A stretch of 64,000 bases of DNA from positions 8,205 through 72,204 of the forward strand of contig JAHIMR010000065.1 in the NCBI GenBank assembly GCA_018896525.1, in the 5' to 3' direction. The translations under genes and the position numbers were made by a program. Below the pieces are notes generated by a model that was not told where the DNA came from, did not search any database, and saw only the letters and a program-made list of their open reading frames with translations. Shown here piece by piece: positions 14,862-62,613 of this stretch (positions are counted from its first letter, which is position 1; every line of letters starts with the position of its first letter). The DNA is from Actinomycetota bacterium (GTDB lineage: Bacteria > Actinomycetota > Geothermincolia > Fen-727 > Anoxymicrobiaceae).

Positions 14862-15125
14862 TAGTGCCCCGTTCCATAGATATGGTCGCGCACCGAGAGC
14901 GTCGAAGCGCCGCTCCGGCAAGGCGCGTGACTGAGGCGTACTCCTGTAGTACGCCGAGGGAGCGGAACGCAGCCGGAGTGGATGCAGCGGCGTTCGAATG
15001 CCAGCGTATTTATGGAACGGGGTACCTATACGTACTCCTGGAGTACGTCGAGGGAGCGGAACGCAGCCGGTGTGGATGCAGCGGCGTTCGAATGCCAGCG
15101 TATCTATGGAGCGGGGTGCTACTAA
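14862..15125. repeat. family-1 element, about 1.5 tandem copies (orientation B), in the divergent region between hppA and the aminotransferase
   Basis: Full unit roughly 14866-15025, then a second half-module roughly 15026-15125. Confidence 0.8.
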
Positions 15126-29807: not shown

Positions 29808-30028
29808 GCGCTACCTTCCGCTCGAATCATGAGCAACGGCACCATCTCGGGATAGGCGTGGGCTTTCTGGTCGAACTGCTCCTGGGCAAGGAGGTTAAGG
29901 CGACAATTGCGGACCTTGGGCAGCCAGACCCGGCAGGTCGTCTCGCCCCAAAGCGTCTGGGCTTCGATGACCTGACAAATCTGCCCGTGATCCATGCTGA
30001 AGTACCAGCCGCTGTCCACGTGACTCAC
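29804..30028 (-). CDS. small ORF (74 aa), translationally coupled between the 351-aa gene and pglZ, hypothetical
   Basis: GTGA overlap with the upstream gene stop and ATGA overlap with the pglZ start. It fills the gap exactly. No similarity recognised. Confidence 0.4.
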   Translation of the reverse strand: MSHVDSGWYFSMDHGQICQVIEAQTLWGETTCRVWLPKVRNCRLNLLAQEQFDQKAHAYPEMVPLLMIRAEGSA

Positions 30029-31080: not shown

Positions 31081-31082
31081 CG

Positions 31083-38096: not shown

Positions 38097-38184
38097 GTGT
38101 GGATCTTCCCGCCTTGTTCACTGAACAAATTCCGGTACCTTTTTCAGGCTTGTCCATTGCGCGAGTCTCATCTGCCGCCGGCAC

Positions 38185-38250
38185 GACGCTCTTCACTTGG
38201 TCACCCAAGAACTGACCAAATGGTCTCAAGTTGGTCACTAACTTGGTCAC
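38185..38250. promoter_or_regulatory. direct repeats of TTGGTCAC (3 copies, plus the related TGACCAA) upstream of the RloC-like gene: candidate operator/internal promoter
   Basis: TTGGTCACCCAAGAACTGACCAAATGGTCTCAAGTTGGTCACTAACTTGGTCAC in the 150-bp gap between the AlbA_2 regulator stop and the RloC-like start. Confidence 0.35.
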
Positions 38251-39812: not shown

Positions 39813-39849
39813 TGCCGCAATCCGTGTCTATCCGTGGTCATCCGTGGTT

Positions 39850-42800: not shown

Positions 42801-43578
42801 GCAATCGCTCGGCAACCACGAACTTGACATCCTTACGGGCGATGAGAATCTGCTCGAAGCGGTCCTTTACCCGGCGAACGCTGTCTGCCACAAAGGAAAA
42901 CCGGGGGCTGTCGAAGATAGCCTCCTGAACGCCAGCTATGAAGCGGAAGCGCAGGTCCTTGCAAACCTCGCCGATCTCGCGGAGGAAGTTCAGGTCGAGA
43001 ATGAGTTCCTGGTCCTTGCGGGTGCGCAAGTAATCAAGCAGTTCATCCACCACCAAGAGCAGGCCGTGTTCGGGAAACTCCTGGTGGAAGGCGGTCATCA
43101 TCTCCTCGAACGAGCGCTTGTTGCCGGACACCTCGGAGGCTGATGGGAAGCCATAGCTCACGCCCATCGCGGCCAAGTGCTCCTCCAGTTCGGCTATGAG
43201 GATGTCTCGAAGGGACATGGTCGTGGCCCCGATCTCAGTGCGCACAACCTTGAATCGGCCGGCTATTATCTCCGCGGCATCCGCCACATCCTGGTTGTTG
43301 AGGCAAGGGGCAAACTCTGGATTCTCGGCAAGCCCGGAGAGCACCGACATGAGGTGCGACTTGCCGGTGCCGTAGTTGCCGACCACCAGCAGGCCTTTGT
43401 TGTTGGTGGGATGCTCGAACTGCAACTGGGGTATGACAAGACCAACCAGCTTTTCCGCCATCTCATCGGAAATGACATAGGTTTCGATAAGCCGCCGGGC
43501 CTCAGTCGCTTCGTCGGCGTCTCGCAGTTGGATCACGGACTCGATAGGTTCAAACTGGATCAGGTCACCGTATTTCAT
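39850..43578 (-). CDS. brxC: BREX ATPase BrxC/PglY
   Basis: 1242 aa. N-terminus [24 protein letters not shown]...[20 protein letters not shown] is the hallmark BrxC start with Walker A. Confidence 0.85.
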
Positions 43579-46758: not shown

Positions 46759-47577
46759 ATGCTCGATAAAGACATACTTGTGGTCGATCTCGGTGCCGAC
46801 AACTGGAACAGGCTGCTTGGCCTGGGAGAGGGGCTCCTGAAGGCGCTGGAGCCCGATGACGGCCCCGGCCCCCTGCTGGTCATATACCGGGGGCTCAAGC
46901 TCCTCAGGGCCATTGACCTGGGGTGTGCCAGGCCGGTAAGCGTGGAGTTTTACGGCACCTCCCGGCTTGACATGCTCTCACGCGAGTCCGGTTACCCCCG
47001 CATCCTGGCCCTGGAGGAGAACGCGTTAACAAGGGTCGTTGGGCACGCCCAGCGGGAATTGGAGTACAAGGATGACTACCTCAAGCAGTTGGGGGGCTTC
47101 GCCCGGGGTGTTGCGCGCGAATGGGGACGGACAATCTTTACCTATCCGCCCCGGGGCCGCCTCCGCCTTCCGCCCCACCGGGCCCTTGAGTGGGCATTCC
47201 GGCTTCTCGTGCCGGACGATACTGTGTTCCTGTTCGCGATAACCGAGAAACGGAAGGCCTGGACGTCCGCCGTCATGGGATACTCGGGCGGCGACCTGTG
47301 GCTCCTGACCTCGCTGGACACGGTCGCCCTCGAGGAGGGTGATCTCTCAAACGGTGCTCTGGAAGCAGCCGCCCGCCTGCTGCAATCGAAGTACGGGGGA
47401 ACGGTGCGGGTGGTCGCGATCCAGCGGGAGGCGCTCCTTCGCGTCTCGCGTAGCCGTTTCCCCTCCGGCGCTCTCCTGTGGGCGCTGAACACCGGCGACT
47501 TGAGGCTCTCGCGAATCCCACTGCGCTGGAAGGTGCTCGCCTTTGCCGCAGCGCTTGCCGCGACGAGAAGAGGGTAA
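46759..47577 (+). CDS. hypothetical protein co-transcribed with the GH35 gene
   Basis: 272 aa. Starts 3 nt after the GH35 stop. No motif recognised. Confidence 0.45.
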   Translation: MLDKDILVVDLGADNWNRLLGLGEGLLKALEPDDGPGPLLVIYRGLKLLRAIDLGCARPVSVEFYGTSRLDMLSRESGYPRILALEENALTRVVGHAQRELEYKDDYLKQLGGFARGVAREWGRTIFTYPPRGRLRLPPHRALEWAFRLLVPDDTVFLFAITEKRKAWTSAVMGYSGGDLWLLTSLDTVALEEGDLSNGALEAAARLLQSKYGGTVRVVAIQREALLRVSRSRFPSGALLWALNTGDLRLSRIPLRWKVLAFAAALAATRRG

Positions 47578-47869
47578 CTCCCTCGTAGCGCCGGCATCTT
47601 GCCGGCATCGGAACGCGCCAGTGGTGCCTGGCACCATTGGCGCGTTTTTCCGTTTGCTTAACGAGGGAGGAGTCCACGCCCTGGGGCTGTTGCATAATGG
47701 GGTGTGGGTTTGGGTGGATGTTGCAACGGCACCAGCCCGGGGATGGCGTTTCTTGTCTCACGTCATCGCTTGTAATGCAGGGGTCAGGCCCGCTGTTGCA
47801 TTATGGAGATAGTCTTGAGTGAGAAGACGAACGACACCAGCCTGGGCCAGACCCCGTTTGGGTGGCGGG
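47578..47869. repeat. family-2 conserved intergenic element, copy 2, ending on the rplQ stop codon
   Basis: See copy 1. Ends ...CCCCGTTTGGGTGGCGGGTTA, where TTA is the rplQ stop on the minus strand. Confidence 0.75.
47615..47652 (+). terminator. intrinsic terminator (GCGCCAGTGGTGCC-TGGC-ACCATTGGCGC followed by TTTTT)
   Basis: Stem-loop plus T-run after the 46759 gene. First module of family-2 copy 2. Confidence 0.55.
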
Positions 47870-48220
47870 TTAGACGAACTCCATCAAGACCATCGAGGCG
47901 TTGTCACCCTGACGTTGCCCGAGTTTGAGAATCCTGGTGTAACCCCCGGCCCGATCGCTGTAGCGTGGCGCCACCTCGTCGAATAGCCGGTGGATGGTGT
48001 CCCTGTCGGCTATTACCTTCAACGCCTTGCGGCGCGAGTTCAAGTCCCCGACCTTCCCGTAGGTAATCAACCGTTCAACCACCGGCTGGGCCATCTTGGC
48101 GCGGGTTTCGGTAGTCTTGATCCTCCCGTGGATTATGAGTTCCCGGGCCAGGTTGGCGAGCATCGCCTTCTGGTGGGACGGGCCGCCCCCCAGTCTTGGG
48201 CCTTTCTTCGGCTTAGGCAT
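47870..48220 (-). CDS. rplQ: 50S ribosomal protein L17
   Basis: 116 aa. [23 protein letters not shown]. Confidence 0.85.
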
Positions 48221-48315
48221 TACTGATCACCAGCTTAGATGTTCCAACACCGCTTGCTTGTGTGCGTTTGCTCGGGCTCCGCTTGTTCACCGTAGCACCT
48301 CTTGTCTCACCAAAT

Positions 48316-50329: not shown

Positions 50330-50710
50330 CTACTGTGCCTGTCTCTTTTTCTTGATCCCGACCTGTGGCCGAGGTCCTTTCCGGGTACGCGCGTTAGTGT
50401 GCGTCCTCTGGCCTCTCACCGGGAGGCCCCGGCGATGCCTCAGGCCCCGGTAACAGCCGATCTCCATCAGCCGCTTGATGTTCTGCGAACGTTCCCTGTG
50501 CAGGTCTCCCTCTATCTGGTAGTTACTGTCGATAAACTCCCTCAGCCTTACGATCTCCTCGTCGGTGAGGTCGCGTACCTTCGTCTCCGGGTCTACCCCT
50601 ACGCCTTCACAGGTCTTACGGCCGCGAGACCGGCCAATGCCGTAAATATAGGTCAGCGCTATCTCAACGTGCTTCTCCCTGGGAAGATCAACGCCCGCGA
50701 TTCTTGCCAC
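50330..50710 (-). CDS. rpsM: 30S ribosomal protein S13
   Basis: 126 aa. [26 protein letters not shown]. Confidence 0.9.
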
Positions 50711-50726
50711 GCCGGTTCCTTTCTCT

Positions 50727-51057
50727 TACTGCCTCGTTCCATAGATACGGTTAAGCACCGAGAGCGTCGAAGCGCCGCTCCGGCAAGGCGCGCGACTCAG
50801 TGCCTCGCTTGATAGATACGGTTTAGCACCGAGAGCGTCGAAGCGCCGCTCCGGCAAGGCGCGCGACCGAGACGTACTCCCGTAGTACTTCGAGGGAGCG
50901 GAACGCAGCCGGAGTGGATGCAGCGGCGTTCGAATGCCAGCGTATTTATGGAGCGGGGTACTTATGCGTACTCCTGTAGTACGTCGAGGGAGCGGAACGC
51001 AGCCGGTGTGGATGCAGCGGCGCTCGAATGCCAGCGTATTTATGGAGCGGGGCATTA
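50727..51057. repeat. family-1 element array (modules X,X,Y,Y; orientation B) between rpsM and rpmJ
   Basis: Two half-module-X copies followed by two module-Y copies. Abuts the rpmJ stop codon. Confidence 0.8.
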
Positions 51058-51174
51058 CTACTTACCCTGCCGCTGCTTGTGGCGGGGGTTGCTGCATATG
51101 ACCATGACCCTGCCGTTCCTGCGGATCAACTTGCACTTATCACACATTTTCTTTACCGATGGCCTTACTTTCAT
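51058..51174 (-). CDS. rpmJ: 50S ribosomal protein L36
   Basis: Manual translation: [38 protein letters not shown] (38 aa; below the ORF-track cutoff). Confidence 0.85.
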
Positions 51175-51201
51175 CTCTGCTCCTCCGAACCGACTAATCC
51201 T

Positions 51202-51420
51202 CTACTTATACCGGTAGGTTATCCTCCCCCGCGACAGGTCGTAAGGGGAAAGTTCGACCGTGACCTTATCACCGGGAAGAATTCGTATGTAATGCATGCG
51301 CATCTTCCCCGATATGTGCGCCAGGACCCTGTGGCCGTTTTCAAGTTCCACCCTGAACATGGCGTTTGGCAACGGCTCCAACACTGTGCCCTCAACCTCT
51401 ATGGCTTCCTCTTTTGCTAC
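51202..51420 (-). CDS. infA: translation initiation factor IF-1
   Basis: [40 protein letters not shown]. Likely non-ATG start (GTG/TTG) near 51420-51423. The ORF-track 5' extension is doubtful. Confidence 0.85.
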
Positions 51421-51484
51421 CAAACCTCCGTGTTCCTCCTTGATGACGCACAAATGAACATAATACCTCAGGCGGACTCTTTTA

Positions 51485-52273
51485 TCAAAGCGAGCCGCTT
51501 AACCCTTCCGCGGCGGTCAGAACATCCGGGCCGCTCTCGGTGATCGCGATTGTGTGCTCGAAGTGGGCGGAGAGGTCCCCGTCCCTGGTACACACCCGCC
51601 AGTAGTCAGGCGAAGCCTCTACCTCCCATGTTCCCGCGTTCACCATCGGCTCAACAGCCAGCACCATCCCCGGCTTCAACACCGGCCCCTTCCCCGGCTC
51701 GCCGTAGTTGGGAATCGGCGGGTCCTCGTGCATGCTGGTCCCAATACCGTGTCCGACGAACCTCCTTACGACCGAATACCCCTCGGACTCGGCCAACTCC
51801 TGAACCGCGTGCGATATATCGGAGAGGTGGTTTCCCGGCCTGCACACCCGTATCCCCGCCTCCAGGGCACGCCTGGTCGCATCGGCAAGCAACCGCGCCT
51901 CGATGTTTCCATCCCCGATCACGACGGTTATCGCCGCGTCCCCGAAGTATCCATCCACCTGGGCCCCGGTGTCCACGCTCAGCAGGTCCCCTTCCTCCAG
52001 CGGCCGCCCGTCCGGAATGCCGTGTACGACCTCAGAGTTCACCGAAGTGCACAGCGTGGCGGGGAAAGGGCCACATCTAATGAAATCCGGCTGGTAATGC
52101 TTGAACGCCGGGATACCGCCACCATTCCTTATTCTCTCCTCCGCGCGCTCATCCAGCTCCTCCGTGGTAACCCCCGCCACGGCGGCGTCGGCCACCGCCG
52201 CCAGGACATCAGCCACCAGCCGGCCCGCCACACGCATCTTCTCTATCTCCCGGCGGGATTTCAAGACGATCAT
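51485..52273 (-). CDS. map: type I methionine aminopeptidase
   Basis: 262 aa with metal-binding D/D/H/E/E pattern. Confidence 0.85.
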
Positions 52274-52935
52274 TCGCCCTCCCGCCCCGTTGCCGCGTCG
52301 ATCGCGCTCATTATCTCGGCCGAGACCTCGTCGGGACTCCCCGACCCGTCCACCAAGGCCAGCTTTCCCGACGATCGATAGTACTCTATCAACGGCTCGG
52401 TGCTGCCGGTGTAGACCTCCAACCGGTTTCGAACTGTTTTCTCATTGTCGTCATCGCGCTGGTATAGCTCTCCCTCGCAGGCGTCACACATCCCCCGTCG
52501 AGACGGAGGGTTGAAGCTCACGTGGTAGTTGGCCCCGCAACTCCCGCATACGCGCCTTCCGGTGAGTCGCCGGATGAGTTCCTCGGGGTCGACCGCGATG
52601 TTAACGACCACGTCGATCTCGTCGCCGCCCGACGCCAGGTATCGGTCCAGTGCCTCGGCCTGGTGTTTGTTGCGAGGGAACCCGTCCAGGATGAAACCGC
52701 CCCCGCAGTCAGCGTCGCCGAGCCTGATGGTGACGATGCCTTCCACGATCTCGTCCGGCACCAGTTCCCCGGTGTCCATGAACCGCTTGGCCTTCAGACC
52801 CATGGGGGTCCCTTCGGCCAGGGCGGCCCTGAAGATGTCTCCGGTGGCGACCTGGGGGAGGTCATACCTCGCGGATATTCTTTCGGCCTGAGTTCCTTTT
52901 CCGGCCCCGGGGGGGCCCAGCAGCACGATGTTCAC
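52270..52935 (-). CDS. adk: adenylate kinase (zinc-lid type)
   Basis: 221 aa. GPPGAGKGTQA P-loop and CGSCG...CDAC lid. Confidence 0.9.
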   Translation of the reverse strand: MNIVLLGPPGAGKGTQAERISARYDLPQVATGDIFRAALAEGTPMGLKAKRFMDTGELVPDEIVEGIVTIRLGDADCGGGFILDGFPRNKHQAEALDRYLASGGDEIDVVVNIAVDPEELIRRLTGRRVCGSCGANYHVSFNPPSRRGMCDACEGELYQRDDDNEKTVRNRLEVYTGSTEPLIEYYRSSGKLALVDGSGSPDEVSAEIMSAIDAATGREGE

Positions 52936-52951
52936 TTTAGTCTGGTTCTCC

Positions 52952-54220
52952 TCACTTGCTCAAGAATCCCTCGTAATGCCTCATCTGCATCTGCGACTCT
53001 ATCTGTCTCATGGTTTCCAGTGCCACCCCGACGATGATCAGGATGGCAGCGCCGCCTATCGGCACCTGCGCGGTGCCGAACTGGACGAACATAATCGCCG
53101 GTATCAGGGCGATGACAGCCAGGTATATGGAACCCGGCAGGTTTATACGGTTAACCACCTTTGCTATGTAGTTAGTGGTAGGCATACCCGGTCTGATGCC
53201 GGGTATGAACCCTCCATACTTCTTCAGGTTATCCGCCAGTTCGAACGGGTCGAAGATTATCGCGGTATAGAAGTAGGCGAAGAAGATAATAAGGCCGGTG
53301 TAGGTCACGAAGTACAGTATCGACCCCTCGGAGAAATTGCTGGCGAAACCCTCCAGCGAAGGAAAGAAGTTCGCCAGTATCATCGGGAAGAAGATGACCG
53401 AAGCGGCGAATATTATTGGAATAACGCCGGCGGTGTTCACCTTCACCGGGATGTAGGTGCTGGCTCCCGCGTACATCTTGCGTCCCCTGATCTGCTTCGC
53501 GTACTGCACCGGAATCCTTCTTTCACCCTGCTCGATATACACCACCCCCGCGATGATACCCAGGCCCAGCGCCGCCAGGAGCACCACCCATATTGGATTC
53601 TGGTAATACGCGGCCCTTACCAGGTTGGCCCCCTCGGTGGGCATCGTCGCTATGATGCTCACGAATATCAGGATTGACATCCCGTTCCCGACCCCCCGCT
53701 CGGTGATAAGCTCCCCCAACCACATAAGGAGGGCCATACCGGCGACCATGGTCATTATCACCAGCCCCCCGGACCACACGGTGAGGTCCGGAAAGATGTT
53801 CAGTTCCTTGTTGGCGCTGAAAGATATCAGGAGGCCGGTCGATTCCATCAGGGCCAGCGCCAGAGTCATGTAGCGCGCCACCATGGTGATCTTGCGGCGC
53901 CCCTCCTCGCCCTGCTCGTGCCACTCCTTTATCTTCGGAAGCACCGCCGAGAGCAGTTCCATGATAATCTCGGCGGTGATGTACGGCATTATCCCCAGCC
54001 CGAATACCGCCATCCTCGAAAGCCCTCCACCGGTGAATATATTGAGGAACTTGAGCATCCCGCTGCCCGTCATCTGCTGCCCAAGGGCTTCCAGGTTGAC
54101 CCCCGGCGACGGGATAAAACAGCCGACACGGTATATCGCCAGGATCAAGAATGTGAAGAGTATCTTGTTCCTCAGGTCCGGAATCTTAAACGCGTCACGA
54201 AACCCGGAGAGAATCCTCAA
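52952..54220 (-). CDS. secY: preprotein translocase SecY
   Basis: 422 aa, 10 TM helices, conserved GIMPYIT-like segments. Confidence 0.9.
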   Translation of the reverse strand: MRILSGFRDAFKIPDLRNKILFTFLILAIYRVGCFIPSPGVNLEALGQQMTGSGMLKFLNIFTGGGLSRMAVFGLGIMPYITAEIIMELLSAVLPKIKEWHEQGEEGRRKITMVARYMTLALALMESTGLLISFSANKELNIFPDLTVWSGGLVIMTMVAGMALLMWLGELITERGVGNGMSILIFVSIIATMPTEGANLVRAAYYQNPIWVVLLAALGLGIIAGVVYIEQGERRIPVQYAKQIRGRKMYAGASTYIPVKVNTAGVIPIIFAASVIFFPMILANFFPSLEGFASNFSEGSILYFVTYTGLIIFFAYFYTAIIFDPFELADNLKKYGGFIPGIRPGMPTTNYIAKVVNRINLPGSIYLAVIALIPAIMFVQFGTAQVPIGGAAILIIVGVALETMRQIESQMQMRHYEGFLSK

Positions 54221-54684
54221 GGAGAAACCACCTCTGCCTTTCCGCCGGCGGCTTCTATCTTCTCGCGCGCGCTCCGGGAAAACGCGTGCGCCTTGACGGT
54301 AAGGCTGGTGTTCAGCTCTCCGCTCCCCAGTATCTTTACCCTGCCGCGCTCCTTCTTGACGAGTCCCGCTTCCGCCAGGGCGACGGGATCCACCACATCG
54401 TCAGTGGTGAACCTGTCCAACTGGTGCACGTTCACCAGCGCGTAGACGGTGCGCTTCCTCGGGGTGAACCCCCCCAGCTTGGGGATCCGTCGCACCAGGG
54501 GCATCTGCCCGCCCTCGAAACCCGGCTTCCTGCGGGATCCCGAGCGAGCCCTCTGTCCCTTGTGTCCGCGGCCGGAGGTCCCGCCCCCGCCGGCACCGTG
54601 TCCCCTGCCCACCCGCTTGCGCGCCTTTCGCGAGTCCGGTGCGGGTTTCAGATTATGTAGCCTGATCTCCTCTTTGCTCTCCAT
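54217..54684 (-). CDS. rplO: 50S ribosomal protein L15
   Basis: 155 aa, Gly/Arg-rich N-terminus. Confidence 0.85.
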   Translation of the reverse strand: MESKEEIRLHNLKPAPDSRKARKRVGRGHGAGGGGTSGRGHKGQRARSGSRRKPGFEGGQMPLVRRIPKLGGFTPRKRTVYALVNVHQLDRFTTDDVVDPVALAEAGLVKKERGRVKILGSGELNTSLTVKAHAFSRSAREKIEAAGGKAEVVSP

Positions 54685-54751
54685 CTACCGTTCTTCCTGT
54701 TCCCTAGTATTCTTGCTCCGCTTACTCCAGGACCGGGGCTGAAGTCCCGGC

Positions 54752-54988
54752 TCAAGGTGGGGGTTTTTCCTGTTCTCCGGATTCCTTGCCCCGCCCGCCG
54801 GAATCCGCTATCTCCTCAACGTCCACCAGGTGCTTGACCTTGAACACCATTCCCCTTGTCTCGGGAACGTCCTTTTTCTCCACCGACTGCCCGATCCTTC
54901 TCAGCCCCAGCGCCCTAATGGTCCCTTTCTGATCCGGCGGACACCCGATCATTCCCTTTCTAAGGGTAACCTTAAGTCTCGAGCTCAT
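54752..54988 (-). CDS. rpmD: 50S ribosomal protein L30 (with short C-terminal extension)
   Basis: [32 protein letters not shown]. Confidence 0.8.
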
Positions 54989-55502
54989 CGAAGACGCTCC
55001 TCCCCGTGACCTCGTCCACTCGCTTTCCCCGGACCCATGCCACCTCGCGGGCGCTACGGAGGGATCTAAGCCCGTTGACCGTTGCCTTTATGACGTTCAG
55101 GGAGTTATCGGACCCGAGGCTCTTTGTGAGTATGTCCTTCACCCCGGCAAGTTCCAGGACCGGCCGCACCGCACCACCGGCGATGAGACCGGTACCGGGG
55201 GCCGCGGGCTTCAGCATGACCCGCGCCGCGCCGAACTTGCCTAATACCTGGTGAGGTATCGTGCTCTCGACCATGGGTATCTCAAAAAGGCTGTTCTTTG
55301 CCCTCTGGACACCCTTCTCGATGGCCAGGGGAACCTCTCGTGCCTTTCCGTAACCGACGCCCACCCTGCCCCGGCCGTTTCCCACGACCACCAGGGCGGT
55401 AAACGAAAACCTGCGCCCGCCCTTTACCACCTTGGCTACCCGGTTTATGTGAACAACCTGCTCCTCGAGTTCTTCGGCCTCAAATGACTCCCGCTTGTCC
55501 AT
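54972..55502 (-). CDS. rpsE: 30S ribosomal protein S5
   Basis: 176 aa. [26 protein letters not shown]. Confidence 0.9.
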
Positions 55503-55510
55503 ACCACCTC

Positions 55511-55880
55511 CTAGAATATAAGCCCGTTCTCCCTGGCGGACTCGGCAAGCGCCTTGACCCGCCCATGATACTTGTAACCGCCCCGGTCAAAGACGACCCG
55601 CTGGATCCCGTTCTCTTTCGCCCTCCCGGCAATCATTTCGCCAAGGCGTCTGGCCTCCTCGGTCTTGGATGCTCGCCCTGAGTCCCGGAACCCCTTCTCG
55701 CCGGTGGATGCGGCCGCCAGAGTGACCCCCCGCTCGTCGTCTATCACCTGACAGTACATGTTCCTGTTGCCCCGAAACACCGAGAGCCGGGGTTTCGTGT
55801 CCGTACCATGGATTCTCTTTCTTATCCCTTTACGGCGACGGTCCCTGCCTGTCGTCTTCTTGTTGACAACGATCTTGCTC
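55511..55880 (-). CDS. rplR: 50S ribosomal protein L18
   Basis: GTG start at [24 protein letters not shown]... The ORF-track N-terminal extension to 56011 is unlikely. Confidence 0.8.
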
Positions 55881-56418
55881 ACTTTATCGCCTTTCCAACC
55901 TTCCTCCGCACGTACTCCCCGCGGTATCGGATGCCCTTGCCCTTGTAAGGGTCCGGCTTGCGCAGGCTCCGTATTTCGGCCGCCACCTGCCCCACGGCCT
56001 GCTTGTCGCACCCGCGCACCACCACCAGCGTGGGGTTCGGCACCTCGAACTCGATCCCTTGCGGCGCCGAAACCGGCTTGGTCGAAGAGTAGCCGAGTTG
56101 CAGCTCGAGGTTTCTGTTGTCTTTCATCGCGGCGCGGTAGCCGACACCGTGTATTTCCAGCACCTTCTCATAGCCGTCGGTAACACCCTTTACCATGTTG
56201 TATATAAGCGTGCGGAACAGCCCGTGCAACGCCCTGTCCCGGGGCTCGTCGCTTTCACGGGTGACCAGAAGCTTGTCCCCTTCCCGCTCCACGCTTATGC
56301 AATCGGGAACAACCCGCTCGAGCTCGCCCCTGGGGCCCTTCACCCGCACCGTTTTACCATCAACCGAAACGATGGCTGCTGCCGGTACTTCTATCGGCGT
56401 TTTTCCTACACGTGACAT
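55879..56418 (-). CDS. rplF: 50S ribosomal protein L6
   Basis: 179 aa. [12 protein letters not shown].. Confidence 0.9.
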
Positions 56419-56440
56419 GAGTCACTCCCCCTGCAAACCG

Positions 56441-56839
56441 CTACCACACGTAGCAGAGAACCTCTCCGCCGACGCCCTGCCGTCGTGCTTCCTTCTCGGT
56501 CATTACGCCCCTCGACGTGGAGATTATGGCTATTCCAAGCCCCCCCAGCACCCGGGGCATACCATCTTTCCTTGCGTACACCCTGAGGCCCGGGGTGCTT
56601 ATGCGCTTTATCCCCGATATCGCGAACTCCCGTCCCGGGCGGTACTTCAGGTGAACCACGATGGTGTCGAAGTTCCCCTTCTTTATTACCTCGTACTTCT
56701 TGATATAGCCCTCACGGTCAAGTATGCGGGCGATCGCCACCTTGGCATTGGAAGCCGAGACCTCCACGCTCTCCTTATGGGCTCCACCCGCGTTTCTGAC
56801 GCGTGTCAGCATATCCGCGATGGGATCGGTCATCGTCAT
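56441..56839 (-). CDS. rpsH: 30S ribosomal protein S8
   Basis: [17 protein letters not shown] start. Upstream ORF residues are a spurious extension. Start coordinate is +/-1 nt because the displayed numbering and ORF-track frame disagreed here. Confidence 0.85.
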
Positions 56840-56852
56840 CGAAATGCCCTCC

Positions 56853-57038
56853 TTACCAGCTTGACTTGGTAACACCGGGTAGCTCGCCGCGGTGGGCGAG
56901 TTCCCGGAGGCATATCCTGCACAACTGGAACTTGCGGTAGTATGCCCGGCTCCTCCCACAGCGCTTGCAGCGGTTGTACTGCCGGGTCGGATACTTCTGC
57001 TTCCTCTGTTGCCTTACAACTAGAGCCTTTCTCGCCAA
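56853..57038 (-). CDS. rpsN: 30S ribosomal protein S14, zinc-binding type Z
   Basis: 61 aa with CKRCGR...CRIC. Confidence 0.9.
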
Positions 57039-57054
57039 CTTTCCCTCCTGTTGG

Positions 57055-57630
57055 TCAATCCTGCTTGAACGGGAAACCCAGGGCTTCCAGCAGGGCTTCT
57101 CCCTCCCGGTCGGTCTTCGCGGTTGTCACCACACACACGTCCATTCCCCGGACCTTGTCTATCTCGTCGTAATCTATCTCCGGAAAAACAAGCTGTTCCT
57201 CGAGGCCCATGCTATAGTTGCCGTTGCCGTCGAACGACCTCCTGGACAGCCCCCTGAAGTCCCTGACCCGGGGCAAGCTGATAGAGAGCAGGCGATCCAG
57301 GAACTCGTACATCCTGTCACCGCGAAGAGTCACCTTGCACCCTACCGTCATACCCGCCCTGAGCTTGAAGCCGGCCACCGACTTCCGCGCCTTTATCAGC
57401 AGCGGCTTCTGTCCTGTTATCACGGCCAGGTCGGCGGCGGCGGAATCCACCGACTTTGAGGTGGTTGTCCCCTCCCCAACCCCCATGTTGACTACGATCT
57501 TGGTAAGGTGCGGCACCTCCAGGCTGTTTCCGTAGGAGAACTTTTCCATCAGCGCTGGAACGATCTCCTCATCGTACTCCCCCATCAGCCGCGGTATGTA
57601 CCTGTCATTTTCCTGGTTTTGACCTTCCAT
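57055..57630 (-). CDS. rplE: 50S ribosomal protein L5
   Basis: Start taken at [31 protein letters not shown]. The ORF-track start at 57717 lies inside the repeat element. Confidence 0.8.
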
Positions 57631-57639
57631 TCTTAGTAC

Positions 57640-57797
57640 CTCATTCCATAAATACGCTGGCATTCGAGCGCCGCTGCATCCACACCGGCTGCGTTCCGCT
57701 CCCTCGACGTACTCCAAGAGTACGACTCGGTCGCGCGCCTTGCCGGAGCGGCGCTTCGACGCTCTCGGTGCTTAACCATATCTATGGAAAGAGGCAC
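57640..57797. repeat. family-1 element (orientation A) between rplX and rplE
   Basis: CATTCCATAAATACG...CATATCTATGGAAAGAGGCACTTAA. The terminal TTA is the rplX stop codon. Confidence 0.8.
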
Positions 57798-58115
57798 TTA
57801 AAACTCCCGGTCGCAACTCTTGCATACCCTGATAATGGACTTCCCGCCGGTACGCAATCTCCTGACTCGCGTAGGTCTCTCGCAGCCCGAGCACACCAGC
57901 ATCACGTTGGAGATATCGATCGGCAGTTCCCAATCCACGACCCCGCCCTGGGGGTTCGCCTGGCTTGGGCGCATATGCTTCTTAGCCCTGTTTATCCCCT
58001 CCACCAACAGCCGCCTGGAGCCCGGGTCAACCTTCAAGACCTTCCCCCGCCTGCCTTTGTCTTTACCGGTCAGGACCTGGACCGTGTCGCCTTTCCTTAT
58101 ATGCATACTCTTCAT
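57798..58115 (-). CDS. rplX: 50S ribosomal protein L24
   Basis: 105 aa. MHIRKGDTVQVLTGKDKGRRGKV. Confidence 0.9.
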   Translation of the reverse strand: MKSMHIRKGDTVQVLTGKDKGRRGKVLKVDPGSRRLLVEGINRAKKHMRPSQANPQGGVVDWELPIDISNVMLVCSGCERPTRVRRLRTGGKSIIRVCKSCDREF

Positions 58116-58127
58116 GAGCCACTCACG

Positions 58128-58496
58128 TTAAAGCACCTCGGGGGACAACGAGATGATCTTCATAAACTTCTTCTGGCGTAACTCGCGAGCCACCGGCCCG
58201 AAGATCCTGGTTCCCCTCGGGTTCATCTGGTTGTCGATGAGAACCGCCGCGTTCTCGTCGAACTTGATGTAGGTGCCATCGGGACGTCTTTTCTCTTTCC
58301 TGGTCCGGACGATAACCGCTTTTACCACTTCGCCTTTCTTAACCGAGGAGCCGGGTATCGCTTCCTTGACCGTCGCCACGATGATATCCCCTACCGACGC
58401 GTAGCGGCGCCCGGAACCTCCAAGCACCCTGATGCAGAGTATCTGCCGGGCCCCGGTATTGTCTGCTACCTTTATCCTCGATTCCTGCTGAATCAT
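58128..58496 (-). CDS. rplN: 50S ribosomal protein L14
   Basis: 122 aa. [17 protein letters not shown]. Confidence 0.9.
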
Positions 58497-58558
58497 CTGT
58501 CCTCGCTCACGGCGCTACCGGCCGGGGTCAACCCCCGGCGGGGGCGCGGCCGGTTTTC

Positions 58559-58816
58559 CTACTTGGCCTTCTCCAGGATGGACACCATTCTCCAGTGCTT
58601 GGTGCGTGACAGTGGTCTGGTTTCCATTACCCTGACAAGATCGCCAACCCCACACTGATTCTCTTCGTCGTGCGCGTATAGCTTGGTCGTCCGCTTCATG
58701 GTCTTACCGTACAGCGGGTGCCTAACCATTGACTGGACCGCCACGACGATGCTCTTGTCCATGGCGTCGGATACGACCCTTCCAACCCTTACTTTTCGCG
58801 ACGGCCTTTTCGCCAT
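58559..58816 (-). CDS. rpsQ: 30S ribosomal protein S17
   Basis: 85 aa. [16 protein letters not shown]. Confidence 0.85.
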
Positions 58817-58825
58817 GTCTACCGC

Positions 58826-59245
58826 CTAAACTTCCTCTGGCTCTTGCTCGACCTCTTCACCGGGCTCTTGCTCTTGCTCGACCTCTTCACCGGGCTCTGG
58901 CTCTTGCTCCTGCTCTTCACCGGGCTCACCAACCGCCTGCCGGAGATCCGGCGCTGACCTCTCCAACTCCTCCCCGGCTTCTGCCGGCTCCTCCCGAATG
59001 GGGCCTACAGGGCCGGCCAGGGCCTCCTCGAATGCCTCGGGATGTATCGCATACTCCCTCTCGGTTATCACCGTGCAGACCCGGGCAATATCCCGACGCA
59101 TATCCTTTATCTTCATCGGGTTATTGAGCTGCCCGGTCGCGTGCTGAAAACGCAGGTTGAAAAGCGTCTCCTTGAGTTCCCGGAGCTTATCGTTCAGCTC
59201 CTCTGAGTCCATCGTCCTGAGCTCTCTCACCTTAGACATTAACAA
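58826..59245 (-). CDS. rpmC: 50S ribosomal protein L29 with roughly 70-aa acidic repeat-containing C-terminal extension
   Basis: N-terminal L29 domain (ELRTMDSEELNDKLRELKETLFNLRFQ). Tail EPGEEVEQEQEPGEEVEQE is encoded by nucleotide tandem repeats at about 58850-58925. Confidence 0.8.
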   Translation of the reverse strand: MLMSKVRELRTMDSEELNDKLRELKETLFNLRFQHATGQLNNPMKIKDMRRDIARVCTVITEREYAIHPEAFEEALAGPVGPIREEPAEAGEELERSAPDLRQAVGEPGEEQEQEPEPGEEVEQEQEPGEEVEQEPEEV

Positions 59246-59262
59246 CCCCCGCTCGAAAACCG

Positions 59263-59685
59263 TTACTCATGCCTGGTTATAAAACGGCACTTGATCGGTA
59301 GCTTATGTGCAGCCAGCCTCATTGCCTCCCTGGCCACCGGCTCGCTGACTCCCCCCAGTTCAAACATGACCTTCCCGGGCTTCACCGGAACCACCCAGAA
59401 CTCCGGGTTGCCCTTCCCGCTGCCCATCCTGGTCTCGGCCGGCTTCTTTGATATCGGCTTGTAGGGAAAGATATTTATCCAGACCTTTCCGCTTCTCTTT
59501 ATATAGCGTGTCATCGCCACCCTTGCCGCCTCTATCTGCCTGGCGGTAATCCAGTGGGGCTCCAGGGCTTGCAGGCCATAATCCCCGAAGTGAACGGAGG
59601 TCCCCCCCTTGGCCTTTCCCTTGAGGCGACCCCTCTGCACTTTTCTGTGTGGCGGCTTTCTGGGTTGAAGCACCTCTCTACTCAC
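59263..59685 (-). CDS. rplP: 50S ribosomal protein L16
   Basis: 140 aa. Confidence 0.9.
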
Positions 59686-60631
59686 CCCCGGACTCTTCTA
59701 CCGCCGTGCTCTCCGGCTCCACCGGCACGGCAGCGTCCCTCTCCTCGGTGGCCTTCCCGGCCTCAGGGGCCTCCGGCGCCCCGGCGGATTCCGCCGCTAC
59801 GGCCGCTTCCGGCTTCTCTTCCGTCTCGGGAGCCGCGGCTTCCGGCTTCTTCGTCTCGGCCATTGGAGCAGGAGCCTTCGCCTTCCGCTTCTCGTTAACT
59901 GCCCGCTCCCCCGAAGTTCTACTATCCTCCCAACGCCTTCCGGCCCGGTTCTTCGATGAGCGTGCCGAGCCAAGCGACGACGGCATCAGGCGGTCCTCGC
60001 CCGGCTTCCCTGTTATATCGCCCTTGTAGATCCACACCTTGACCCCGATGCGCCCGTAGGAAGTCTTCGACTCGACGAACCCGTAATCAACATCGGCACG
60101 GAGCGTCTGCAGCGGCACTCGGCCCTCCCTGTACCACTCGCGGCGCGCCATCTCGGCTCCGCCAAGCCGACCGCTGCACTGCACCTTGATGCCCAGAGCT
60201 CCCAGGCGCATGGTGTTTCCCATCGCCTTCTTCATCGCTCTCCTGAACGAAACCCTGCCCGAGATCTGTTCGGCAATATTTCTCGCAACCAGCACCGCGT
60301 CGAGATCGGGAACCGGAACCTCAAGTATGTTTATGGAAACATCGTGGCCGAACATATTCGTGAGGTCGTCCCTGATCTTGTCCACCTCGCTGCCCTTTCG
60401 CCCGATTACCATGCCCGGGCGAGCAGTGTGGACATCAATGCTGACCACTTTGGCCTTGCGTTCGATCTCCACCCGGGAAACCGCCGCGTTGGAGAGCCGG
60501 TCGGCCAGGAACTCCCGTATCTTGATATCCTCCTGGAGGAGCTCGGCGTACTCCCGATCGGCAATCCAGCGTGATTTCCAGTTCCTTATTACTCCCAGCC
60601 TGAACCCGTAGGGGTGAATTTTTTGACCCAC
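59678..60631 (-). CDS. rpsC: 30S ribosomal protein S3 with roughly 100-aa Ala/Glu/Pro-rich C-terminal extension
   Basis: GTG start at [13 protein letters not shown]. The ORF-track 5' part (Arg-rich) is the out-of-frame rplV tail region. Confidence 0.8.
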
Positions 60632-60632
60632 G

Positions 60633-61283
60633 TCAACTCTCGCCTTTCTCCGTGTCCGTTTCGTTCCCGCCGCCGCCACTCTCTTCCGCCTGCTTCCGGC
60701 TGTCGTCATCCGTCGCCTTCTTCGGGGCCACCTTCTTTGCTGCCGCCTTCTTCTTCGGGGCCGCCTTCTTTGCTGCCGCCTTCTTCTTCGGGGCCGCCTT
60801 CTTTGCTGCCGCCTTGCGCTCCTTCTCGCCCTCCGCCTGCTCCTCGAGCTTCTCCTCTTTGGCCTCGCCCTCTTCTGCCTTTTTCGCCTTTTCCTCCAAG
60901 GCATCGGGCTTTCTTCTCCGGAAACGGCGCTTTCTTTTCGGAGCCGACACCTTTTCCTCCAGGATTATGGTTATATGGCTCGTCCTCTTGTTGATGCGTG
61001 TTGCTCTGCCCATCGCCCTTGGCCTGAACCTCTTCAAGGTCGGCCCCTCATCCACGTACACCGTGGCCACGAACAAATCGTCGGGGTTCATCTTCGCGTT
61101 GTTCTCGGCGTTGGCCGCCGCCGAATCCAGCACCTTGGCCACCACCCGGGCGGCGGCCCTCGGTGTATACTCAAGGATCTGCTGCGCCTTCGCCAGGTCT
61201 TTTCCCCTTATGAGATCGACAACCAGCCGTGCCTTTCTCGGGCTTACCCTGATAAACCTGGCTACCGCTTTGCTACCTTCCAC
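60633..61283 (-). CDS. rplV: 50S ribosomal protein L22 with Lys/Ala-rich (histone H1-like) C-terminal extension
   Basis: 216 aa. L22 core then [15 protein letters not shown] repeats. Confidence 0.85.
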
Positions 61284-61302
61284 CTAGATTCAGCCTCCTG
61301 GC

Positions 61303-61593
61303 CTACTTGAGCCGTACACGCTTCTCCTTGGTCAGCTTGCCCCCATGACCACGGAATATCCGTGTGGGAGCAAACTCTCCAAGCTTATGTCCTACCATGT
61401 TTTCGGTGATGTAAACCGGTACGTGCCTCCTGCCGTCGTGAACCGCGATGGTATGCCCGACCATCTCCGGGAAGATAGTGGAGCTGCGCGACCACGTCTT
61501 GAGAAGAGTCTTCTCGTTACGGCGGTTCATATCAATTATCCGCGTCAGAATCTTCTCATCCACGTACGGGCCTTTCTTAAGTGAACGGGACAA
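61303..61593 (-). CDS. rpsS: 30S ribosomal protein S19
   Basis: 96 aa. [16 protein letters not shown]. Confidence 0.9.
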
Positions 61594-61609
61594 CTCATCC
61601 TCCCTTTGA

Positions 61610-61785
61610 ACCCCGGGCTACTATGTACCCCGCTCCATAAATACGCTGGCATTCGAGCGCCGCTGCATCCACTCCGGCCGCGTTCCGCTCCCTCGACGTA
61701 CTACAAGAGTATGACTCGGTCGCGCGCCTTGCCGGAGCGGCGCGGAGGCGCTCTCGGTGCTTAACCGTACTTATAGAACGGGGCA
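61610..61785. repeat. family-1 element (orientation A) between rplB and rpsS
   Basis: Ends ...GAACGGGGCACTA. The terminal CTA is the rplB stop codon. Confidence 0.8.
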
Positions 61786-62613
61786 CTATGACCTCCTGCT
61801 CCTGACTATCAACTCACTGGAGTGCTTTTTCTTGTTCCTGGTACGGTATCCCAACGTCGGCTTGCCCCACGGGGTGACCGGGTGCCTCCCCGATTTCGAC
61901 TTCCCCTCGCCGCCCCCGTGTGGGTGGTCCACCGGGTTCATCGCCGAACCCCTGGTCTGGGGTCTGATTCCGCGGTGGCGCGAGGAACCGGCCTTTCCGA
62001 TCGTTATCAGTTCGTGCTCTGGGTTTCCCACGACCCCTACCGTCGCCCGGCACTCGAGGCGCACCTTTCGCACCTCGCCCGACGGCAACCGGAGATGCGC
62101 AAACCCGCCCTCGCGGGCCATTATCTGTGCCGATGCCCCCGCCGAACGCACCATCTTGGCGGCGCCGCCGGGCTTGAGTTCCACCGCGTGGACTATGGAC
62201 CCGACAGGGATGTTAACAAGCGGCAGAGCGTTTCCCGGCTTGATGTCCACCTCGGGTCCCGACTCCACGACATCTCCGATCATCAGGTCCACGGGGCACA
62301 GTATATACCGCTTCTCGCCATCCAGGTAATGAAGCAGCGCAAGCCTGGCCGAGCGGTTCGGGTCGTACTCTATCTCAGCCACCCTGGCGGGTACCCCGTC
62401 CTTGTCCCTTCTGAAGTCGACAGTGCGGTACTTCCTCTTGGCGCCTCCGCCCCGGTGGCGCGCTGTCTTACGCCCGTAATCGTTTCTCCCGCCGGTTCTC
62501 TTGATCGGCGAGGTAAGCGACTTCTCGGGAGTACTCCTGGTTATCTCGGAGAAGTCGGATACCGTCGCGAACCTCCTCCCCGGTGAAGTCGGTTTATACT
62601 TTTTTACACCCAC
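61786..62613 (-). CDS. rplB: 50S ribosomal protein L2
   Basis: 275 aa. Confidence 0.9.

Follow-up and report, generated by a model that had tools for sequence, protein, structure and literature searches.

A palindromic repeat family with the probable character of a non-autonomous transposon at stop codons and operon junctions of Candidatus Geothermincolales

The window, the whole 64-kb stretch of DNA that was analysed, contained six loci with an imperfect palindrome of 162-163 bp, which was organised as an X arm, a central hairpin and a Y arm (Table 1). The copies in the window were 83-91% identical to each other. Based on Pfam, the neighbouring genes encoded L36 and S13, L24 and L5, L2 and S19, Tmk and HolB, the C-terminal subunit of fumarase (fumB) and Tmk, and, in a divergent arrangement, an H+-PPase and an aminotransferase. 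The first-pass annotation of this DNA had assigned one element family to the rpmJ-rpsM, rplX-rplE and rplB-rpsS spacers and to three further sites, and all six were found in these places; its picture of a dispersed multi-copy family was borne out by the six window loci together with copies in further assemblies. At rpmJ-rpsM the coding (-) strand meets the Y arm first, and a 265-bp sub-composite of this locus was 91% identical to 14863-15127. The invasion of the ribosomal operon had been regarded as unusual, but it is not peculiar to that operon; the density there (three in about 14 kb) was similar to that of the window (six in 64 kb).

Table 1. Copies of the element in the window, with their neighbouring genes and flanks.
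Feature	Position	Strand	Neighbouring genes	Parts, flanks and ends
Composite, rpmJ-rpsM	50729-51055	+ (X-to-Y)	rpmJ 51058-51174 (-), rpsM 50330-50710 (-)	X1 - X2 - hairpin - Y1 - hairpin - Y2; X1 50729-50796; complete X2-hairpin-Y1 unit 50800-50961; additional hairpin and Y2 up to 51055; flanking TA 50727-50728 and 51056-51057
Single 162-bp unit, rplX-rplE	57636-57797	-	rplX 57798-58115 (-), rplE 57055-57630 (-)	TAA 57798-57800 (rplX stop) and TAA 57633-57635
Single 162-bp unit, rplB-rpsS	61625-61786	-	rplB 61786-62613 (-), rpsS 61303-61593 (-)	ATA on either side; rplB stop TAG 61788-61786
Single unit, tmk-holB	5018-5179	-	tmk, holB	tmk stop TAG 5182-5184; holB ATG 5011
Divergent-subfamily unit, fumB-tmk	5915-6077	+	fumB (fumarase C-terminal subunit gene), tmk	termini TGTYCCGTCTCATAAGTAC; fumB stop TAA 6077-6079 (-)
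Unit with additional hairpin and Y arm, divergent intergenic region	14864-15119	+	hppA 12607-14658 (-), aminotransferase gene ending 16281 (+)	TA at each flank

Structure had been suspected in the element, and one long hairpin was indeed predicted for a single unit, with a folding energy of -93.4 kcal/mol and a z-score of -9.2 relative to shuffled sequences. The unit was bounded by terminal inverted repeats of about 25 bp (terminal stem about 19-25 bp; consensus GTGCCCCGTTCCATAAATACGG), and these repeats covaried. Among 16 diverse copies, compensatory changes were found in 12 of the 19 terminal-stem pairs and in 17 of 58 pairs overall, and the observed values were reached by none of 500 shuffles on four of five covariation measures and by one of 500 on the fifth. 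Both ends mostly began with G and occasionally with A. The same 23-bp inverted repeat, with TAA on both flanks, also enclosed an unrelated interior in a second element (L027:3079-3277). TA was present on both sides of nearly all 41 full copies, and 12 of these were flanked by 3-bp direct repeats (TAA in six, TTA in four, CTA and ATA in one each). Because the outermost base of the element is ambiguous, the duplication is readable as 2 or 3 bp: 2-bp TA suits the fumB-tmk copy, and 3 bp suits the six copies with TAA/TAA and the four with TTA/TTA. Strict 2-bp TA duplication is typical of a MITE derived from IS630/Tc1-mariner and 3-bp TWA of one derived from IS5/Harbinger; Tourist-like/PIF-Harbinger and IS5-family (IS1031/ISL2-type) elements give 3-bp duplications of the TAA/TTA type.

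The TA or TAA/TTA duplications, the covarying terminal inverted repeats and the presence in at least nine assemblies suggested that the element as a whole is best explained, with good probability, as a non-autonomous DNA transposon (MITE) specific to Candidatus Geothermincolales (Actinomycetota). It is best read as a new family within a known kind of small bacterial transposon. Bacterial MITEs have been characterized as shorter than 200 bp, lacking a transposase gene, bearing terminal inverted repeats and a TA-type duplication with empty sites in relatives, numerous and A+T-rich, and related to an autonomous insertion sequence whose inverted repeats match (PMC2229807). The unit was likewise shorter than 200 bp (core 162-163 bp) and without a transposase gene, but its base composition departed from this description, being 60-62% G+C and matching that of the host genome. 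A+T-richness is a common trait of MITEs, not a mechanistic requirement. A predicted transposase would recognise the terminal inverted repeats and integrate the element at TA. Neither a gene for a partner transposase nor a solo inverted repeat with such termini turned up in the retrieved loci, where the inverted repeat was confined to known elements, and no additional copies of it were detected in the viral contigs, plasmids or phages searched. A palindromic element transposed as a single strand, derived from IS200/IS605/IS607 and inserting on the 3' side of a short target that it does not truly duplicate, is a very improbable origin. The window does hold an IS607-like pair of serine recombinase and TnpB (24975-26811) and the stability of the hairpin differs by strand, but the flank repeats vary (TAA, TTA, CTA, ATA) and yet match per copy, like target duplications, and the element has long inverted termini, which are absent from IS200/IS605. 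HMM comparison of the element with the IS607-like locus revealed no similarity.

Empty sites, which had been proposed as a check in syntenic relatives, were found at all three ribosomal junctions in relatives with L5 80-96% identical. The rpmJ-rpsM junction was empty in L124, L128, L129, L130, L132 and L134, with a spacer of 12-15 nt, the rplB-rpsS spacer of the relatives was 24 nt without an element, and at tmk-holB the genes of L136-L138 overlapped or lay 1 nt apart, the element being absent. Empty and filled sites could be paired at rplX-rplE (tttTAAgagATG in the relatives, tttTAA[element]TAAgaATG in the window) and most cleanly at fumB-tmk (aagTAGtagaat in the relatives, aagTA[ATGTCCC...GGAACAG]TAGtaaaat in the window), where TA was duplicated within the fumB stop codon; besides these two paired junctions, four others had empty sites. 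Some of the relatives with empty sites bore copies of the same family elsewhere, at rplO-secY and rpsM-rpsK, and an older rplO-secY copy had lost sequence, measuring 121 nt, 70 nt or about 38 nt depending on the lineage. The three ribosomal insertions in the window are recent, lineage-specific and fixed.

Several copies lay at the ends of retrieved loci, and repeats often terminate these loci, and probably the contigs too, in the metagenome assemblies concerned; misassembly or uniqueness to the window had been named by the first-pass annotation as what would overturn its reading. The same three filled ribosomal sites recurred in three assemblies built independently from separate data sets (NCBI GCA_018898375.1, ENA ERZ27247108 and JGI 3300013392), in which contigs of 10-54 kb spanned the filled junctions, and several other assemblies showed coherent empty sites. 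These results argued that the insertions are not misassembled, and an assembly or binning artefact is hardly conceivable. The family was not unique to the window either: at least 38 loci were counted in at least nine Geothermincolales assemblies, with at least 14 in one single assembly and at least 13 in another.

The mean pairwise identity of the interior was about 88%, compared with 71-78% for the covarying termini, whereas ends recognised by a transposase would naively be expected to be the better conserved part. The core remained about 88% identical across lineages with L5 only about 72-76% identical, and at locus L013, likewise within an operon spacer, an unrelated stem closed the same core. 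In addition, the X-to-Y strand averaged -99 kcal/mol against -74 kcal/mol for its complement and folded better, by about 25 kcal/mol, in all 41 copies. G.U cells were in excess over A.C cells (245 versus 137), and among the covarying pairs G.U intermediates occurred in 15 and A.C in 4. Such strand asymmetry of the fold is not predicted by a purely DNA-level model. These features favour a different reading, possible though rather unlikely, in which the conserved core of about 115 nt is a module with a function of its own, as structured RNA or single-stranded DNA, host or element selection acts on the X-to-Y fold, and the inverted-repeat shell is no more than its carrier; the core might serve in processing, stability or insulation, or be required in cis or trans for mobility. 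However, the copies are not independent samples, and the asymmetry in 41 of 41 may be inherited from a master sequence. Relative to transcription the copies were also oriented both ways, about 10 being X-first and about 7 Y-first, and Rfam gave no match to the element even at E = 10 and none at gathering score in the window. Because the orthologous sites of sister lineages are empty and old copies decay by deletion, individual copies are not maintained for host function, which argues against such a module.

The placement of the element relative to stop codons was evaluated in several assemblies. Of about 40 full copies, 16-17 (about 40%) adjoined a stop codon, more than expected by chance, since stop-codon TAs made up only about 8.7% of the tolerated TA sites (binomial P about 1e-7). 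It had been claimed that the last 3 nt of the element are the stop of the upstream gene and that the next gene starts directly at the other end, and each claim held in part. The ends do supply or restore stops, since the rplX TAA adjoins the core directly and the rplB TAG and fumB TAA each consist of TA plus the first element base, but at rpmJ and tmk a TA separates the TAG stop from the element. A terminal G joined to the TA target best accounts for the stops, rather than stop codons carried by the element as such. The next gene was close at rplE (5 nt) and holB (6 nt) but farther away at rpsM (18 nt), rpsS (31 nt) and tmk (about 61 nt). On insertion into or beside a stop, TA and the end base (G or A) restore TAG or TAA, which keeps the upstream protein intact. 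The genome is compact and about 60% G+C, and the sites at which insertion is tolerated are therefore mainly stop codons. The element is apparently built so that insertions at stop codons cause little harm.

The translation geometry of the element was similar at several junctions. Of 41 copies, 30 had GTG as their first triplet and 34 were open in frame 0, which corresponds to 54 codons in the core. At rplX-rplE, GTG opened 54 codons that ended with TAA 2 nt before the rplE ATG; at tmk-holB, GTG and 54 codons were followed by TGA 3 nt before the holB ATG; and at rplB-rpsS, a GTG overlapping TAG started a 63-codon frame with its TGA 1 nt upstream of the rpsS TTG. The mRNA strand of the rpmJ-rpsM composite had an ATG 2 nt past the rpmJ stop and a 109-codon frame, with its TAA (50726-50728) 15 nt before the rpsM GTG. 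The end of the element frame was 1-3 nt from, or overlapped, the next start at rplE, holB, rpsS and secY, suitable start and stop geometry was found at 5-6 operon junctions, and both rplO-secY deletion derivatives were still in frame and open. In dinucleotide shuffles, the probability of an open frame 0 was 0.08-0.10 for the unit, 0.05 for the L027 element with unrelated interior and 0.023 for the composite. The 54-codon peptide was the one frame of the unit, and its sole database relatives were five small hypothetical proteins. The translated frame stays a proposal, because about one third of the copies had a frame-shifting 1-nt indel, open frames arise easily in a G+C-rich interior, and only about 37% of the copies begin with a start codon when read from the Y end.

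The element had been placed within ribosomal-protein mRNAs, and co-transcription is the natural reading of its position inside the S10-spc-alpha cluster without a promoter-like or terminator-like signal of its own, none having been found in the element. Within operons it would be transcribed together with the genes and would fold into a hairpin with an energy of about -90 to -100 kcal/mol. At tightly coupled junctions, the native Shine-Dalgarno (SD) would now lie just 5' of the GTG triplet of the element, the 162-nt core would be read as the open 54-codon frame, and the distal duplication would provide an in-frame stop with the original stop-to-start geometry kept. The terminal GGAG, GAGG or GGGG may serve as SD, and ribosomes could melt the hairpin and then reinitiate at the downstream gene. 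With a ribosome placed in the model at the stop of rplX, the stretch from the rplE SD to the AUG became more accessible, its mean unpaired probability rising from 0.20 to 0.56. Such a build would limit polar damage.

MIRUs are direct-repeat units of about 46-101 bp, often tandem and without inverted termini, and REPs are palindromes with a conserved head, about 35 bp in length and linked to RAYT transposases. An intercistronic repeat of the MIRU type or the REP/BIME type, spread by means other than cut-and-paste at inverted repeats, such as RAYT copying or slippage and recombination, would share with the element its intercistronic sites in operons and its modular composites (X X hairpin Y hairpin Y), and the stop and start codons at its ends with an internal open frame resemble MIRU logic (PMC12548453). 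The overlapping stop/start logic claimed by the first-pass annotation was supported at the sequence level by the GTG first triplet, the open 54-codon frame and the stop near the downstream start, but membership in MIRU or REP families gave way to MITE anatomy, with terminal inverted repeats, TA/TAA/TTA duplications and empty sites. The palindromic form of the whole unit, its inverted termini of 25 bp, the direct flank duplications that vary, the exact empty sites, the absence of tandem arrays of a 50-100-bp unit, and a unit about four times the length of a REP make such an intercistronic repeat quite unlikely. MIRU membership was rejected, the 162-bp palindrome having inverted termini and the composites being nested or partial units, not tandem arrays of short units; REP/BIME membership was rejected for a unit four to five times longer, and no Y1/RAYT-like gene was present among the window genes scanned.

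In build, the element is best read as closest to ERIC, Correia and RUP. ERIC/IRU (127 bp) and the element are both 100-170 bp long, imperfectly palindromic over their whole length and terminated by TA, and each lies in either orientation in operon intergenic regions that are transcribed. In the RNA, the 5' end of ERIC pairs with its 3' end to give a hairpin, which ribosomes coming from the upstream gene have been proposed to remodel (PMC2229807). Differently, the element has no sequence relation to ERIC and another host phylum, is about 60% G+C, and has about 40% of its copies on a stop, an open 54-codon GTG frame and an interior more conserved than the termini. Correia/NEMIS of Neisseria and RUP of Streptococcus pneumoniae, which are IS630-type MITEs, resemble it in being numerous and shorter than 200 bp with terminal inverted repeats of about 25 bp and duplicated TA, and they are also co-transcribed with their neighbours (PMC2229807), as the element probably is. 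RUP has been tied to IS630-Spn1 via common inverted repeats (PMC2229807), whereas the element has no found partner insertion sequence, its duplications often look 3 bp long (TAA/TTA), and no IHF or promoter motif is evident. The likeness to Tourist/PIF-Harbinger and IS5-family elements lies in the clean 3-bp duplications, 10 of 12 being TAA or TTA, but other copies fit only 2-bp TA. REP/BIME are likewise intergenic palindromes able to form mosaic composites, but their lack of TA duplications, like their length and their RAYT link, has no counterpart in the element. MIRUs share with it the Actinomycetota, the intercistronic operon sites and an internal open frame abutting or overlapping the flanking stop and start, but they form no long hairpin and the element is palindromic with flank duplications. 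The overlap of the MIRU frame ends with the flanking stop and start has been proposed to make insertion translationally harmless (PMC12548453).

Repeat finding agreed with blastn, and with an HMM made from the six window copies, in locating one repeat family at six sites of the window; the genes flanking these sites were identified from Pfam and precomputed annotations. The unit was 162-163 bp in length: its left arm (X) is followed by a central hairpin with a 7-bp stem (CGTACTC-loop-GAGTACG) and then by a right arm (Y), a degenerate inverted copy of the X arm. Folding of a single unit gave one long hairpin at -93.4 kcal/mol (z = -9.2). Composites were present at two loci; a 265-bp X-hairpin-Y-hairpin-Y arrangement was shared by the copies at 14.8 kb and 50.8 kb with 91% identity, and an extra outer X arm was found beyond it in the rpmJ-rpsM composite. 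Since the density of elements in the ribosomal cluster (3 per ~14 kb) was about equal to that of the window (6 per 64 kb), the ribosomal operon is not specially targeted, it is merely not protected. No signal attributable to the element was obtained in the promoter/terminator scan of 50-62.5 kb, and the element is not a classical intrinsic terminator because it has no T-run.

Positions of the element and of other features in the window and in loci fetched from other assemblies (L plus three digits)
Feature	Sequence	Position	Strand	Place
Element core	window	5018-5179	-	Tmk-HolB junction
Element core	window	5915-6077	+	fumarase C-terminal subunit-Tmk junction
Element core, composite	window	14864-15119	+	between divergent H+-PPase/aminotransferase pair
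Element core, composite	window	50729-51055	+	L36-S13 (rpmJ-rpsM) junction
Element core	window	57636-57797	-	L24-L5 (rplX-rplE) junction
Element core	window	61625-61786	-	L2-S19 (rplB-rpsS) junction
195-nt element	L027	3079-3277		
Family core in unrelated stem	L013	2850-3045		
Absorbed remnant	L130	10264-10311		rplO
Absorbed remnant	L132	7626-7667		rplO
IS607-like pair	window	24975-26811	-	TnpA 26230-26811, TnpB 24975-26249
40- and 54-nt tandem repeats	window	23078-23337		near IS607-like pair
CTTGAGCCGGGACTTCAGYCCCGG hairpin motif	window	54733-54756	-	just past rpmD stop
CTTGAGCCGGGACTTCAGYCCCGG-related spacer	L124	6239-6376		
CTTGAGCCGGGACTTCAGYCCCGG-related spacer	L128	5114-5281		
CTTGAGCCGGGACTTCAGYCCCGG-related spacer	L132	6960-7172		
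CTTGAGCCGGGACTTCAGYCCCGG-related spacer	L134	6086-6260		
80-nt unit	window	48231-48311	-	rpoA-rplQ spacer
Tandem-repeat extension	window	60710-60815		rplV (60633-61283)
Tandem-repeat extension	window	58818-58927		rpmC (58826-59245)
300-bp tandem copies	window	10134-10762		topA 3' part, zinc-ribbon region
Paired ~350-bp stretch	window	17717-18081		intergenic
Paired ~350-bp stretch	window	47575-47877		intergenic
GGCACCAGCCCGGGGATGGCG motif	window	29833		
BREX-like island	window	27768-43578		

The first-pass annotation had left two doubts about the repeats, that they might be peculiar to this window or a misassembly. An exact search with a 31-base Y-arm pattern matched at least 38 loci, spread over at least 9 genome assemblies; one single assembly supplied at least 14 of these loci and another at least 13, so the element is not unique to the window. 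The assemblies included Candidatus Solincola sediminis and Candidatus Anoxymicrobiaceae, which represent two families of Candidatus Geothermincolales. Several of the fetched loci ended at a copy, which fits a repeat at which assemblies break. Searches of viral contigs with inverted-repeat and Y-core patterns gave 0 matches, and blastn against plasmid and phage collections gave no match to the element. No description of repeats in Candidatus Geothermincolales was found in a full-text literature search.

Misassembly is not the explanation either, since the L5 protein of the window was encoded identically in three independent assemblies (NCBI GCA_018898375.1, ENA ERZ27247108 and JGI 3300013392) and all of them contained the identical three filled ribosomal junctions. 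The relatives were also checked for empty syntenic sites. Those with L5 96, 94, 93, 88, 85 and 80% identical had short native spacers at all three junctions (24 nt at rplB-rpsS, 0-3 nt at rplX-rplE and 12-15 nt at rpmJ-rpsM), and both tmk junctions (Tmk-HolB and fumB-tmk) were empty in tmk relatives. The element was absent from 80 more distant metagenome rplE loci; the L5 metagenome scan yielded mainly distant relatives (57-77% identity), none with the element, and served as a negative control only. On these comparisons, the insertions in the ribosomal cluster are genuine and recent.

Other junctions were occupied in sister lineages. The rplO-secY spacer contained an insert of 121 nt in L124 and L129, a remnant of 70 nt in L128 and one of ~38 nt in L130 and L132, and a full copy was found between rpsM and rpsK in L130, L131 and L132, which indicated that at least five superoperon junctions were entered independently. 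The remnant in L130 and L132 was absorbed into rplO, where the last L15 residues and the TAA stop were derived from the element, and secY started 24 nt past this element-encoded stop, behind the element's GGGG.

In 41 full-length copies, the termini were inverted repeats of ~25 bp with the consensus GTGCCCCGTTCCATAAATACGG, and TA stood directly outside the termini or one base off. Perfect 3-bp direct repeats were found in 12 copies (TAA in six, TTA in four, CTA and ATA in one each), and in the remaining copies TA abutted both ends, frequently inside CTAG or TTAA. The cleanest pairs of empty and filled sites were fumB-tmk (aagTAGtagaat in relatives vs aagTA[element]TAGtaaaat in the window) and rplX-rplE (empty tttTAAgagATG vs filled tttTAA[element]TAAgaATG), in both of which the stop codon's own TA (or TAA) was duplicated. 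The pre-insertion sequences at rplB-rpsS, rpmJ-rpsM and tmk-holB differed from the relatives by small indels, thus these junctions do not define the duplication. The duplicated target may be of 2 bp (IS630/Tc1-like) or of 3 bp (IS5/Harbinger-like), and either reading would fit, as the element varies in its outermost base.

A 195-nt element in L027 carried the 23-bp terminal inverted repeat of the family with TAA/TAA flanks around a wholly unrelated interior, a pattern to be expected were the termini recognised by a transposase. Of the cells in 16 diverse copies, 97% were paired, and compensatory change was detected in 17 of 58 pairs, 12 of these in the 19-bp terminal stem. The observed covariation was reached by none of 500 shuffles on four of five measures and by one of 500 on the fifth. 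The inverted termini, TA/TAA duplication, shared ends and stem covariation place the element among bacterial MITEs, the features of which were summarised by Delihas (PMC2229807); it is a new family of this known kind. The parent insertion sequence was sought by a fuzzy search of all fetched loci with four inverted-repeat variants, which returned no copies outside known elements, and comparison of the 54-residue peptide with 5.8 billion proteins matched only 5 small hypothetical proteins, with no transposase among them. An IS607-like pair in the window (serine-recombinase TnpA and TnpB), near which 40- and 54-nt tandem repeats were observed, was considered as a partner and rejected, as it had no similarity to the element.

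As counted with a crude gene caller, 16-17 of ~40 copies had a gene stop codon at an offset of -1 to +3 nt from the element; a caller based on codon usage separated shadow ORFs poorly, and genes were chosen greedily by total score instead. The TAs in TAA/TAG stops accounted for 8.7% of tolerated TA sites in the sequences used for this count (148 stop codons vs 1551 intergenic TAs), and the excess at stop codons was significant (P ~1e-7 for 16/40). The earlier observation that the element ends on the stop codon of a gene was right, and it is general. The first base was usually G and occasionally A at both element ends, so that TA and the terminal base again form TAG or TAA whichever way round the element lies. 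The stop was rebuilt in this way at rplB, fumB, L009, L011, L016, L023 and rplO of L124, and the orientation relative to the gene was unbiased (~10 vs ~7). The placement at stop codons results from the TA target, the terminal base and selection against other landing sites.

GTG was the first triplet of the element in 30 of 41 copies. Of the 8 stop-adjacent copies that are read Y-first, 6 began with GTG or ATG. The core of 162 nt corresponded to 54 codons in most copies, with the frame open in 34 of 41, and the L027 element, likewise a multiple of three, was exactly 65 codons with the frame open from the first base. By dinucleotide shuffle, an open frame occurred in 8-10% for the unit, 5% for the 195-nt element and 2.3% for the 327-nt composite. 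This frame ended in the duplicated TAA 2 nt ahead of the rplE ATG, in TGA 3 nt ahead of the holB ATG, in TGA 1 nt ahead of the rpsS TTG and in TAA 15 nt ahead of the rpsM GTG. At rplO-secY, both L124 and L128 had it closed by a TAG that overlaps the GTG of secY, and in L128 the frame was kept although the element had lost internal sequence twice in succession (162 to 120 to 69 nt). Terminal GGAG, GAGG or GGGG stood 5-9 nt before rplE, holB and secY, and in a simple thermodynamic model, a ribosome placed on the rplX stop raised the mean unpaired probability from the Shine-Dalgarno (SD) site to the AUG of rplE from 0.20 to 0.56.

Where junctions are tightly coupled, the downstream gene would have its native SD inside the upstream gene, at the 3' end; insertion would leave this SD 5-9 nt ahead of the first triplet of the element. 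We advance the hypothesis that the element in operons may be crossed by relay translation, and the tolerance model is kept at this level because a third of the copies had a 1-nt indel and the interior was G+C-rich. A protein-coding role of the internal frame was also considered. Hairpin pairing ties the codon positions of the two arms, which confounds a synonymous/non-synonymous test of peptide conservation.

The mean pairwise identity was ~88% in the interior and 71-78% in the termini, and the high value held for the X arm too, which played no part in retrieval. In L013, a contig of 66% G+C binned as Deltaproteobacteria and possibly mis-binned, the family core was closed by an unrelated G/C-rich stem; it stood in a [NiFe]-hydrogenase/complex-I-like operon, in the spacer that separates the large-subunit gene from the small-subunit gene. 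In every one of the 41 copies, folding was ~25 kcal/mol more favourable for the X-to-Y strand than for its complement, and G.U pairs exceeded A.C mismatches (245 vs 137 cells, and 15 vs 4 among covarying pairs). These results hint that the source elements are constrained in an RNA or single-stranded DNA form. A host function of individual copies is argued against by their occurrence in both orientations, by orthologous sites without the element in sister lineages, and by the decay of copies through deletion.

We add a tentative reading, which we consider possible rather than probable: the inverted-repeat family might have been selected for translational transparency through a built-in relay frame, with the conserved core as a cis-acting module. 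The relay would draw on a start codon as first triplet, a length divisible by three, a stop-free frame in two unrelated interiors and the 327-nt composite, a stop codon recreated by target duplication, and SD-like termini. The conserved strand-asymmetric core would be an RNA/ssDNA module acting in cis for mobility or for transparency.

Further repeats were observed in the same gene cluster. A second, small hairpin motif, CTTGAGCCGGGACTTCAGYCCCGG, followed the rpmD stop. In relatives, the rpmD-rplO and rpsQ-rplN spacers had expanded by 70-150 nt, spacer segments with this motif having been duplicated in tandem. The rpoA-rplQ spacer was another variable insert, with one 80-nt unit bounded by the direct repeat (A/T)TGGTGA in the window, none in L128 (15-nt spacer) and two in L129 (175-nt spacer). 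L22 (216 aa) and L29 (139 aa) had long C-terminal extensions made of 30-33-nt tandem repeats, and S3 was also unusually long. Elsewhere in the window, topA contained two full 300-bp tandem copies (98% identical) with a third begun. Two intergenic stretches of ~350 bp, 84-88% alike, included a perfect hairpin (AATGCGCCAATGGTGCC/GGCACCATTGGCGCATT) and the GGCACCAGCCCGGGGATGGCG motif, and are probably another repeat family. A region of low G+C (51-55%) resembled a BREX-like defence island, with PglZ, a DNA methylase, DUF6079, several AAA ATPases and a Schlafen/Fic-like protein.

Few bacterial gene arrays are as conserved and as tightly coupled as the S10-spc-alpha cluster. In this uncultured actinobacterial order, its junctions were repeatedly colonised by a hairpin of ~-95 kcal/mol, apparently free of cost. 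Natural matched pairs, in which one junction exists with and without the 162-nt hairpin, together with in-frame deletion derivatives, could be used to probe translational coupling, ribosome-driven unfolding and mRNA processing facing large structured inserts, and whether mobile elements evolve harmlessness inside operons. Worth pursuing are the possible built-in relay frame and the natural series of filled, empty and partly deleted sites at coupled junctions of essential genes. The family breaks metagenome assemblies, and in Geothermincolales it can be used to mark strains or lineages.

No Rfam match was found for the whole window at gathering score or for the element itself at E up to 10, and membership of MIRU, REP or any Rfam family was rejected. 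The MIRU/REP-like identity proposed in the first-pass annotation is not retained as membership, but its likeness to MIRU holds in the proposed translational logic, in which MIRU is the closest known system. In anatomy, ERIC, Correia/NEMIS and RUP are closest. The relay would let a cut-and-paste transposon occupy stop codons in essential, translationally coupled operons and converge on the MIRU strategy. The proposed tolerance resembles the MIRU proposal, the RNA-unfolding/reinitiation coupling models (PMC12548453) and the ribosome-dependent remodelling proposed for ERIC (PMC2229807).
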